Positions 42,391-45,720 of a stretch of 64,000 nucleotides of DNA are shown here, piece after piece; within the stretch, counting starts at the first letter, position 1; the number at the start of each line of letters is the position of its first letter. Source of the stretch: Candidatus Curtissbacteria bacterium (lineage in GTDB: Bacteria > Patescibacteriota > Microgenomatia > Curtissbacterales > GWA2-41-24). The notes beneath the pieces are model-generated. The model saw only the letters and a list, made by a program, of their open reading frames with translations. It did no database searches and was not told where the DNA came from. The stretch covers positions 18,000 through 81,999 of the forward strand of contig JACPEV010000003.1 in the NCBI GenBank assembly GCA_016183325.1, written 5' to 3'. The position numbers and the translations under genes are program-made.

Positions 42391-43571
42391 ATGATCTTTA
42401 AATCTATCCCCCGGCAAGTTAAAAATCTGGGACTGGTGAGTCTTTTTAATGATATCGCTTCTGAAATGCTTTATCCGGTGATGCCGATTTTTTTAACGCA
42501 AGTGTTGGCGGCTCCAGTTGCTGTGGTGGGCATTATTGAAGGCGTGGCAGAGGGATCTTCTGCAATTTTTAAGACTCTATTTGGCTTGTGGTCGGACAAA
42601 CTTGGCAAGCGGAAAATATTTGTAGTTTTTGGCTATCTTTCTTCGGCGATTGCTAAAGTTATTATTGCTTTATCGATAATTTGGCCATGGGTATTTTTGG
42701 GAAGATTTGTTGACAGATTTGGCAAGGGAGTAAGAACAGGCGCGCGAGATGCTTTGCTTTTGGAAGCGGCTGATAAGAACAATAAGGGGTTGATTTTTGG
42801 CTTTCACAGATCCATGGATAGCGCCGGCGCGGTTTTGGGACCACTGATTGGTTTTTTCCTGCTTTTAAGTTTTGAGGAAAATATCAGATTGATTTTGTAT
42901 TTAGCCGCGATTCCCTCTCTTTTTGCTTTATTCTTTTTGATTTTCATCAAAGATGCCAAAAAAAATGAGAAGAAGAATTTGAGGTTGAGTCTAACTTTTA
43001 AAAATTTACCTAGTCAATTCAAATTATTTCTCTTAACTGTCGCGATTTTTTCGCTGGGAAACAGTTCTGATGTTTTTTTGATATTGCGAGCACAAAATTT
43101 GGGTTTAACTTTGAGCTTGGTGATTCTTGCTTATGTTATTTATAACTTTGTCTACACTTTTGCTTCAACACCCGCCGGAGGTTTCTCGGACAAAATCGGG
43201 CCTAAAAAGATTTTTTGGTGGGAATTTTAATTTATATTGCAGTTTATTTGGGATTTGCATTTACCAATAGTGCCTTTTATGTTTGGCCGCTGTTTGCAAT
43301 TTATGGATTTTATATTGCGCTGACAGATGGAATTGCTAAGGCATTAGTCGGGTCGTATATTGAAAAAGAACAAGCAGGAACGGCGTATGGGGTACTGCAG
43401 ACGACGATTTCCATCTTTACACTTTTGGCATCGGTGATTGGCGGATTTTTGTGGCAGGTAATCTCACCGCAAGCGACTTTTTTATTCGCAGCTGGTTGTG
43501 CCTTGTTAGCTTTGGGATTATTTTTAGCTTATGGCAAGATTAGGGTAAAAGAGGATTTGATTGAACATTGA
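42391..43571 (+). pseudogene. MFS transporter with a frameshift in a T-run
   Basis: ORFs 42391-43230 and 43215-43571 form one MFS protein; adding one T to T6 at 43211-43216 restores KKIFLVGIL. Confidence 0.8.
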
Positions 43572-44259: not shown

Positions 44260-44580
44260 TTACAGGTGAGCAGACTTGCTGTTGGTTTGGGGAACAATGC
44301 GAATTTCCAGGCGTGCCTTTAGGGCTTTGGTGATTTTTTCAAGTGTTTTAAAAGTATAAGCCGTGTAATCGGCGGACTCCAGCCGGGCGATGTTTGATTG
44401 TTTGGTACCCACGAGTTTGGCCAATTGAGCTTGAGTTAAACCTGCTTTTTTACGCAAATCGTAAACTTGGAATGCAATATCCCAAGCCCTATCTGCCTTC
44501 TCTAAACCTTCCGCAAGGTTTGGACGTTGTTTTAATAATTTTTCTGTAAATCTATCTAAATCGTCTTTTTTTCTTTTCAT
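44260..44580 (-). CDS. Xre-HTH antitoxin (HigA-like)
   Basis: LRKKAGLTQAQLA..QSNIARLES. Confidence 0.9.
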   Translation of the reverse strand: MKRKKDDLDRFTEKLLKQRPNLAEGLEKADRAWDIAFQVYDLRKKAGLTQAQLAKLVGTKQSNIARLESADYTAYTFKTLEKITKALKARLEIRIVPQTNSKSAHL

Positions 44581-44581
44581 A

Positions 44582-44935
44582 TCAGCTTTCCTTAATTTTA
44601 ATTTCTCTTAATCTTTTTCTAGCCAATTCCAGTTCGTTACTTGGTATCTTCTGTTGCTTCTTTATAAAAACATGTAAAAGAATTATTACTCGCCCTTTTT
44701 CAAAAGTGTATAAGATCCTTAAGATATTATTTCCTGATTTGATCCTTAATTCCCATAATCCAGGTTCAACATATTTTGACAATGGCTCACGATGGTAAGC
44801 CCTCTTTCTTAATTTTTCAATACCGCTTCTGGTTTTGACGACTAAGTCTATATTGGTTTTAGCCAAATCCAGTAGAAATTCTTCGACAGGACTTTTACCA
44901 TCGACGTCTTTATAAAAATAGATTCCAAAGTCCAT
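44582..44935 (-). CDS. RelE/HigB-like toxin (Gp49/DUF891)
   Basis: SPVEEFL, GLWELRI, LLHVFIKKQQK. Confidence 0.9.
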   Translation of the reverse strand: MDFGIYFYKDVDGKSPVEEFLLDLAKTNIDLVVKTRSGIEKLRKRAYHREPLSKYVEPGLWELRIKSGNNILRILYTFEKGRVIILLHVFIKKQQKIPSNELELARKRLREIKIKES

Positions 44936-44977
44936 TTTTATTATATCAATTTTGATATAAAAATCAAGGGGCAATAA

Positions 44978-45142
44978 TTACTTTTTAGATTTCTTCTCCT
45001 TTTCGCCATAATCTCGACTACTGATTAGAATGACTAGGGGTTTACCGGAGCGGGTGATGAGAATCTTTTTGCGGCCAAAGTGAACTTCGTTGAGAATATC
45101 TGCAAAATGTTGTCTGGCGAATCTTGCAGTAACTGTTTTCAT
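44978..45142 (-). CDS. Phd/YefM-family antitoxin (orphan)
   Basis: ARQHFADIL..ILITRSGKPLVILIS. Confidence 0.8.
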   Translation of the reverse strand: MKTVTARFARQHFADILNEVHFGRKKILITRSGKPLVILISSRDYGEKEKKSKK

Positions 45143-45319
45143 TAACAGCATTGTATCTTTATGAAAAAATTGTGTCAATTGTGTACATTTGATACATTTT
45201 GTACCGATTGACAACATGGGTATTAAATGTTATTTTGTTTTTATGATGCATAATTTGTGTCTTTATTTAACTGGGGAATCTTCAAAAACTCTTTCAGATT
45301 TCTTCCAGTAAGTATTTTC

Positions 45320-45703
45320 GAAACAGGTGGAAGGTCGGGCTGAAGCCTTCTTAAATCCCGTAAGGGTAAGTAAAGTTCTGCGAGGTTGCGAAGCATTTGG
45401 GTGGGAAAGTTCTGACAAACCCAATTAACAACCAGCCTGTTTCTAAATGCAAATTTCAATATTTGTGGGTAGTGACTGAATTAAACCGCTATGCAGGGTT
45501 AAGGTGGCTTCTGGTCGGATGATGAATTCGGCAGCTGACGGCAAGTGTTGAGGCTAAACAGGAGCGCTGGGGGCCAAAAGTCCGGTTGATGTGAAAGCAA
45601 CCCTACAGCTTGGGACTGACTACTGCAGAGGCTTCCAAACTTGGGAGAGTAGGTTGAGAGGCGAGGAGAAGTCCTCAAATCAAGACAATTCTTCCCTACC
45701 CAC
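45320..45703 (+). ncRNA. Candidate structured ncRNA with a group-I-like core
   Basis: Closing helices 45320-45327/45436-45443 and 45465-45472/45696-45703; GNRA hairpin; P/Q/R/S-like motifs. Confidence 0.5.
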
Positions 45704-45720
45704 TTTGTTACAATTGAATT

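Follow-up and report, generated by a model that had tools for sequence, protein, structure and literature searches.

The closest described system is the manA RNA (RF01745), which was listed as a cis-regulatory candidate by Weinberg et al. 2010 (PMC2864571) and which clusters with the wcaG and abiF RNAs (PMC9964418). From cis-regulatory candidates the manA RNAs became in vitro assemblies in 2026, with no known role; a cryo-EM study reports pentamers, decamers and a 60-mer cage, held together by L5-L7′ contacts that are combined either with L8-L9′ or with L3-L8′ and a GNRA contact (bioRxiv 10.64898/2026.07.01.735769). The hosts of manA are marine phages or Photobacterium, whereas the element described here belongs to CPR bacteria. 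The 'manA-II' motif of Leptotrichia, a three-stem junction with a terminator located upstream of manA genes (PMC11109978), resembles the element in name only, and this name is taken and not reusable. In a literature search that covered few subscription journals, we found no report of an RNA of this kind from CPR bacteria, no Phd-linked structured RNA and no description of domain 1 (see below).

The window, the whole stretch of 64,000 nucleotides that was analysed, lies on contig C4 of a 1.21-Mb genome that is 95% complete and present in groundwater sequencing runs; no RNA run was among the listed runs that contain it. The RNA element is located in the gap between a short Phd gene on the minus strand and an rnfD-like gene, whose start lies 17 nt past the RNA end (Table 1). 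Its two RNA domains lie in tandem; each covaries and folds on its own. They are patchily distributed, and in most cases a short, divergently oriented Phd gene is the neighbour, the two predicted promoters being separated by a conserved box. Taken as a whole, the locus is best explained, with moderate confidence, as a stand-alone manA-like ncRNA cassette of Microgenomates-type CPR bacteria.

Table 1. Features of the RNA locus, in coordinates of the window.
Feature	Coordinates	Strand	Basis and remarks
Short Phd/YefM gene (54 aa), divergent from the RNA	44978..45142	-	PF02604 positions 1-45 of 74
Predicted sigma-70 promoter of the Phd gene	45150..45178	-	11/12 consensus matches; consensus only; shuffles give 1.7 such sites
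Operator-like box, TGTAC-type half-sites, between the two -35 elements	45179..45204	.	Conserved; putative Phd binding site
Predicted RNA promoter, TTGACA, 17 nt, TATTTT	45208..45236	+	Consensus match
Leader hairpin	45270..45309	+	Sequence not conserved; hairpin here in several homologs, by eye, uncounted
Domain 1, ~125-nt multi-branch RNA module	45320..45443	+	Covariation; no Rfam match; alone, doubled, or before domain 2
Domain 2, ~240-nt manA-like RNA closed by GUGGGUAG/CUACCCAC, then short U run	45465..45703	+	Covariation; weak manA match at homolog L160
manA-type 5′ module: GUGRCUGAAUA, stem-loop, AARGY	45472..45505	+	Includes 2-bp helix 45475-45476 with 45504-45505
PK1 5′ side, L3-equivalent loop YGCAG	45492..45496	+	90% of cells paired, 12 sequences
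PK2, AAGU loop with ACUU at 45639-45642, possible, weak	45543..45546	+	Invariant 12/12, therefore uninformative
Variable arm holding the 3′ strand of the P4 proposed earlier	45579..45617	+	Gapped or different in most homologs
ACUACUGCAG strand, L8-equivalent	45619..45628	+	PK1 3′ side 45623-45627; ACUACUG invariant in 15/15 full copies

The element is almost certainly a real structured RNA. Support for this comes from its homologs; the fold of the single sequence was no better than shuffles (z -0.10). In the structure of domain 2, 96.5% of cells are paired over 12 sequences and 33 of the 70 pairs show two-sided changes, values that were reached by none of 500 shuffles, and slid controls gave 36-48% paired cells. 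Because the structure was drawn on the same 12 sequences, the margin is in part inherent, and the evidence lies in the two-sided changes. For domain 1 (16 sequences), 86% of cells are paired and 14 of 30 pairs are two-sided, a figure that is lowered by the aligner, which misregisters three helices of a second subtype; 21 of 500 shuffles reached the pair count and none the cell count. An earlier note on this DNA had outlined two closed domains and had offered an unnamed large ncRNA as one of its readings, and homologs and covariation bear out both. The strings that it quoted are all in place, with GAGGAGAAGTCC at 45663. Two-sided changes were found in 4 of the 6 counted pairs of the domain 1 closure GAAACAGG/CCTGTTTC (16 sequences), in 3 of the 8 pairs of the domain 2 closure GTGGGTAG/CTACCCAC (12 sequences) and in 2 of the 3 pairs of the cccGTAAggg hairpin. 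The tgcGAAgca hairpin, which it had also described, is not retained in the homolog alignments. A coding reading was rejected because the lengths of 47 of the 62 internal gaps in the domain 2 alignment are not divisible by three. There is often an ATG or GTG 6-12 nt past the -10 box, but the peptides, compared by eye, are not conserved.

Domain 2 and manA share the closing helix GGG(U)AG/CU(A)CCC, beside it the sequence GUGRCUGAAUA, then a 2-bp RC/GY helix around a stem-loop, and then AARGY. Further common elements are an arm with several branches, one that carries ACUACUG and a final arm, which stacks on the closing helix. According to the full-model alignment and the covarying helices, the order of these arms inside the closing helix matches manA, and the arms are larger. 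The 2-bp helix was taken from the Rfam manA structure line and was absent from the structure initially drawn here; its pair 45475/45505 reads A-U in 5, G-C in 4 and G-U in 3 of 12 sequences, and the helix is G-C in all three divergent copies (L359, L390 and L392). In addition, an A-U/U-A swap in the adjoining stem is common to manA (58 and 14 of 72) and the element family. The second motif, ACUACUG, was absent from the pattern used to fetch manA; among 72 viral manA-pattern sequences it is exact in 24, and the manA L8 motif CUGYAG is present in 62. In the 1.2-Mb genome there is a single occurrence of the 5′ motif and likewise of the joint pattern, the latter having been designed with both families already in view.

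The manA_pho34 RNA has an L3-L8 pairing with a possible counterpart in the element, PK1 (YGCAG/CUGCR), where the manA loop numbers are mapped onto the Rfam model by inference. Three pairs of PK1 are invariant over 15 copies. The second pair is G-C in 12 copies, U-A in L390, U-G in L359 and an A-C mismatch in L392, and the outer pair is U-A in 4, C-G in 5 and C-A in 6 of 15, the C-A mismatch being present in 6 of the 12 aligned sequences. The pairing may echo the manA L3-L8′ kissing contact, and the sequence would read alike for contacts within and between molecules. The CAAGU partner of PK2 was not seen in L390 or L392.

When 10 homolog loci (33 kb) were scanned against 4227 Rfam families, manA was the best family by E-value, with a match at L160 that covers domain 2 end to end (model positions 1-192, 19 bits, E 0.72; E 0.011 on the local stretch). 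This was the best score, found in 1 of the 10 loci and below the gathering cut-off of 55.2 bits, and neither the window nor L359 gave a manA match. Taken alone, the L160 score is at noise level, because manA also scores 19.6 bits on a coding stretch of the window's genome. True manA sequences score 152-195 bits, and from 80 viral loci fetched with the manA 5′ motif, all 19 tested pass the cut-off. On 150 genomes of the phylum, the manA family gave noise-level matches only and missed the element. Sequence-only manA profiles miss the element family as well, with 0 of 12 for an HMM of the 3′ part, and a chain of manA blocks scored -1.9 to 10.5 on the family versus shuffled maxima of 15-27. Matches of the domain 2 model on manA loci were not used as support, because these loci were fetched by the shared 5′ motif.

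Several features set the element apart from manA. Domain 2 is ~240 nt long, versus ~190 nt for manA, and the 5′ GACG hairpin that precedes the manA closing helix is absent, an AU-rich linker and domain 1 being found there. Instead of the manA kissing pair of L5 GGUGGU and L7 ACCA, the element has CAAGUG in 12 copies (UAAGUG in one) and no ACCA loop, and the L9 UACAG loop is not kept as such in the element family. The ACUACUG strand lies in an internal loop, not in a hairpin loop; there is an extra hairpin before it and a longer 3′ arm with a GAAG-loop hairpin. The element is furthermore tied to a divergent Phd gene or an upstream PaaX-like gene. Domain 2 is thus probably an enlarged, divergent manA-class RNA, and we call it manA-like and not a member because sequence-only profiles fail, several manA loops are missing and the score is below the cut-off. 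The sub-threshold Rfam scores, the failed profile tests, the extra arms and the different loops would also fit an unrelated new RNA class that converged on a shared 5′ motif, a reading made distinctly unlikely by the same helix order, the covariation of the manA-predicted pair, the presence of ACUACUG at the matching place and the divergent rows of the original manA alignment, which also read GCUGAAUAA...AAAGC (PMC2864571 supplement 5). In one low-depth contig (run X5), the 50-nt 3′ arm at 45633-45684 is replaced by 10 letters, and this short form is nearer the manA length.

In total, with repeats removed, we found 15 full domain 2 copies, 3 partial or remnant ones and 22 domain 1 copies. The homologs come from one CPR class and from metagenomes, with named records of Candidatus Levybacteria and Microgenomates, and domain 1 only was also found in three distinct viral loci. 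Four runs, each from a different study, yielded contigs with partial relatives, in which the match ends at 45697-45704 and other flanks follow. A pattern made from this region gave 3 true copies among 10 matches in genome contigs and 7 among 16 in metagenome contigs; of these 7, one is partial and 3 duplicate sequences already found. A search with the Phd protein in 401 genomes of the class returned 7 genomes at ≥55% identity, including that of the window, and 6 of these 7 contain the RNA. When the 401 class genomes were searched at the DNA level, 7 genomes matched strongly and there were 11 weak matches, one of them real; a DNA search with the window sequence found none in 60 relatives and none in 31 genomes of its own family. 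With the domain 2 model, 96 genomes of one family yielded 5 full copies, 1 remnant and 1 noise match, and another family 1 copy in 17 genomes. Two additional divergent genomes came from the domain 1 model (2 of 21; 4 of 151 including that of the window), which found none in 150 genomes across the phylum. In viral contigs, domain 2 patterns gave no match at first and 9 matches in later searches, none of which passed the model.

Domain 1 is a separable, uncatalogued module: it stands alone in two genomes (L187 and L188), is doubled in L179, and is alone in 4 of 16 viral pattern matches, 3 of them distinct. It represents a separate covarying RNA motif of bacteria and viruses without an Rfam family. 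The lone viral copies, L351 1455-1584, L374 1492-1623 and L385 1492-1641, each follow a promoter-like stretch, and in L351 domain 1 lies opposite groES/groEL. The cassette decays often. In L171 (816-1027), the 3′ half of a copy is fused to a broken Phd gene; in L371 (1494-1737), domain 1 is joined to the 3′ half of domain 2; and in L217 (1501-1560), a 60-nt 5′ remnant is left. Several copies in one family, L187, L188, L216 and L217, are located beside nickel superoxide dismutase-like genes (identified by eye), a placement that points to inheritance by vertical descent, with losses, in that family. L160 is recorded as 'uncultured Gammaproteobacteria', and its sequence is identical to genome G263 of the window's class; it is probably a misbinned contig.

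The Phd gene matches only the N-terminal DNA-binding part of its Pfam family. This part is shared with the Phd/YefM type II antitoxins (PF02604), as is an operator with TGTAC-type half-sites; the half-sites of the box presumably resemble those of YefM operators. Unlike these antitoxins, the protein is ~50 aa long, has no C-terminal toxin-binding part in the Pfam match and no constant toxin partner, and its gene is divergent from an RNA gene. A divergent Phd homolog is present at 12 of the 19 RNA loci examined. The operator box was found by pattern at 12 of 20 loci, 11 of them with the RNA and one, L192, with Phd and the box only, and TTGACA stands at the same place in all 12. Moreover, Phd and domain 2 identities correlate (r 0.68, permutation p 0.009; 10 loci, not independent). 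Phd is not obligatory: BrnT/CopG genes are found at L371, and no regulator was seen at the three viral loci. In the divergent subgroup formed by L359, L390 and L392, both domains lie 300-400 nt downstream of a PaaX-like gene with a Cas2-like central domain (two confirmed by Pfam, the third by eye). A regulator is thus usually adjacent to the RNA, and it is not always the same one. A terminator-like hairpin is located just 5′ of domain 1 in these three loci.

At 7 of 14 loci the downstream gene is convergent, and it is different in each of the other 7. These varied downstream genes argue for a free RNA, and the element is probably not a riboswitch; a constant position 5′ of functionally related genes was not found among the 14 loci, nor a terminator hairpin at the RNA. 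Tandem riboswitch-like aptamers controlling the downstream gene, here the rnfD-like one, as first proposed for the once cis-regulatory candidate manA, would fit the size and modularity of the domains, the doubling of domain 1 in L179 and the short distance to the next gene in the window. We nevertheless consider them very unlikely, given these downstream genes and the -10-like box that the rnfD-like gene has of its own and that is kept in relatives without the RNA. A reading as an rnfD leader was likewise rejected: in family relatives the rnfD-like gene is found without the RNA, and the interval from pcrA to this gene is variable (23 loci searched; variability among the matches listed).

A function as an RNA antitoxin or anti-defence RNA of toxin-antitoxin islands was also considered. 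RelE/HigB-, PIN-, BrnT-, Fic- or pRiA4b-type genes flank many copies, and domain 1 occurs in viruses, but no toxin family is common to the loci and hence there is no cognate toxin. RNA and toxin genes may both simply occupy insertion hotspots, and we regard this function as highly improbable.

The headline of the earlier note was a repurposed group-I-like ribozyme, and P4/P7 covariation, the check that it had named, fails. Its P4 has 72% of cells paired, with 1 of 9 pairs two-sided and 4 pairs mostly gapped, and most of the 3′ strand AACCCTACAGC falls in the variable arm, where homologs have gaps or another sequence. The GGTT of this P4 pairs locally with AACC, with 100% of cells paired and 3 of 4 pairs two-sided (12 sequences). 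In P7, 81% of cells are paired, none of the 6 pairs is two-sided and one pair is broken in 9 of 12 sequences, and its GGCTTC pairs with an upstream GGGGCC, where 3 of 6 pairs are two-sided. It is the GAGG/CCTC hairpin, mentioned in the earlier note as a possible competitor, that is conserved (3 of 4 pairs two-sided). Together, P4 and P7 have 76% of cells paired and 1 of 15 pairs two-sided, which is within shuffles, 87-460 of 500 shuffles reaching the observed values. No exons were found at the element, as the earlier note had said. The same applies to flanking exons, a U-G 5′ splice site and a terminal G as group I splice features, and the flanks differ among homologs. The Rfam check gave no match for the window at the gathering cut-off, and chance matches only in the E-value scan. 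An RF00028 search of the genome returned as its sole match a canonical tRNA intron on contig C16, which serves as a positive control with 59.5 bits, and passed over the element; conversely, the domain 2 model has no match at that intron (L013). In four DNA runs, no joint that skips the whole element was found. The pattern on the strings likened to the R and S elements of tRNA introns gave 2 other matches in 400 class genomes, both inside coding genes, and none homologous in the 80 viral loci inspected (of at least 120). Phage and plasmid collections gave no match. The element is not a splicing ribozyme; its likeness to group I introns (RF00028), such as that of tRNA-Asn, is limited to local strings in the window copy, it lacks conserved P4/P7, exons and splice-site features, and its helix order is different. 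We therefore give almost no credence to a group I core, for which the window strings alone can be drawn as P4, P6 and P7 with a G-C pair and a bulged A. L013 (G000:C16:40720-40952) itself is located in a tRNA-Asn(GUU) gene and contains an open frame in its 5′ part, HNH-type by eye.

For the stand-alone manA-like cassette, we consider it reasonably likely that the Phd protein would bind the box and repress both its own gene and the RNA, which would be switched on when Phd falls, for instance upon stress or infection. More tentatively, the RNA might act in trans as a structural RNA that oligomerises via L3-L8 loop pairing, with domain 1 as an added module; the proposed parallel is the oligomerisation of Photobacterium-type manA RNAs in vitro (bioRxiv 10.64898/2026.07.01.735769). 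The fullest version is a modular RNA operon in which a manA-like RNA, under the control of a toxin-less Phd repressor, assembles into oligomers or cages made of RNA alone via a rewired L3-L8 contact, and carries or co-assembles with a domain 1 module that also occurs alone on viruses; we consider this conjecture on the whole unlikely. If it is true, a cage-forming RNA would for the first time have an identifiable regulator dedicated to it. That a CPR branch has a predicted promoter of its own and a candidate repressor, but no fixed downstream gene, speaks for a manA class that acts as free RNA. In addition, the CPR variants represent a natural test set for the contacts that drive manA assembly.

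Further candidates and observations concern the genome around the element. No tRNA or rRNA was found in the window. Identity with RNase P RNA or tmRNA was rejected, both genes being located elsewhere in the genome (C18:44668-45069 and C4:139133-139538, respectively), and a circularly permuted RNase P was rejected likewise, GGCUUC covarying with another strand and RNase P being found elsewhere. Directly behind the Phd gene, at 44260-44974, lie a RelE/HigB-type gene (PF05973) and an HTH antitoxin, in the same order as in L166. An MFS transporter at 42391-43571 is present as two overlapping frames, split near 43215-43230, and is a single frame in relatives (L025). Elsewhere in the genome, at G000:C16:28957-29031, ARAGORN predicted a tRNA with a CUA anticodon ('Pyl').
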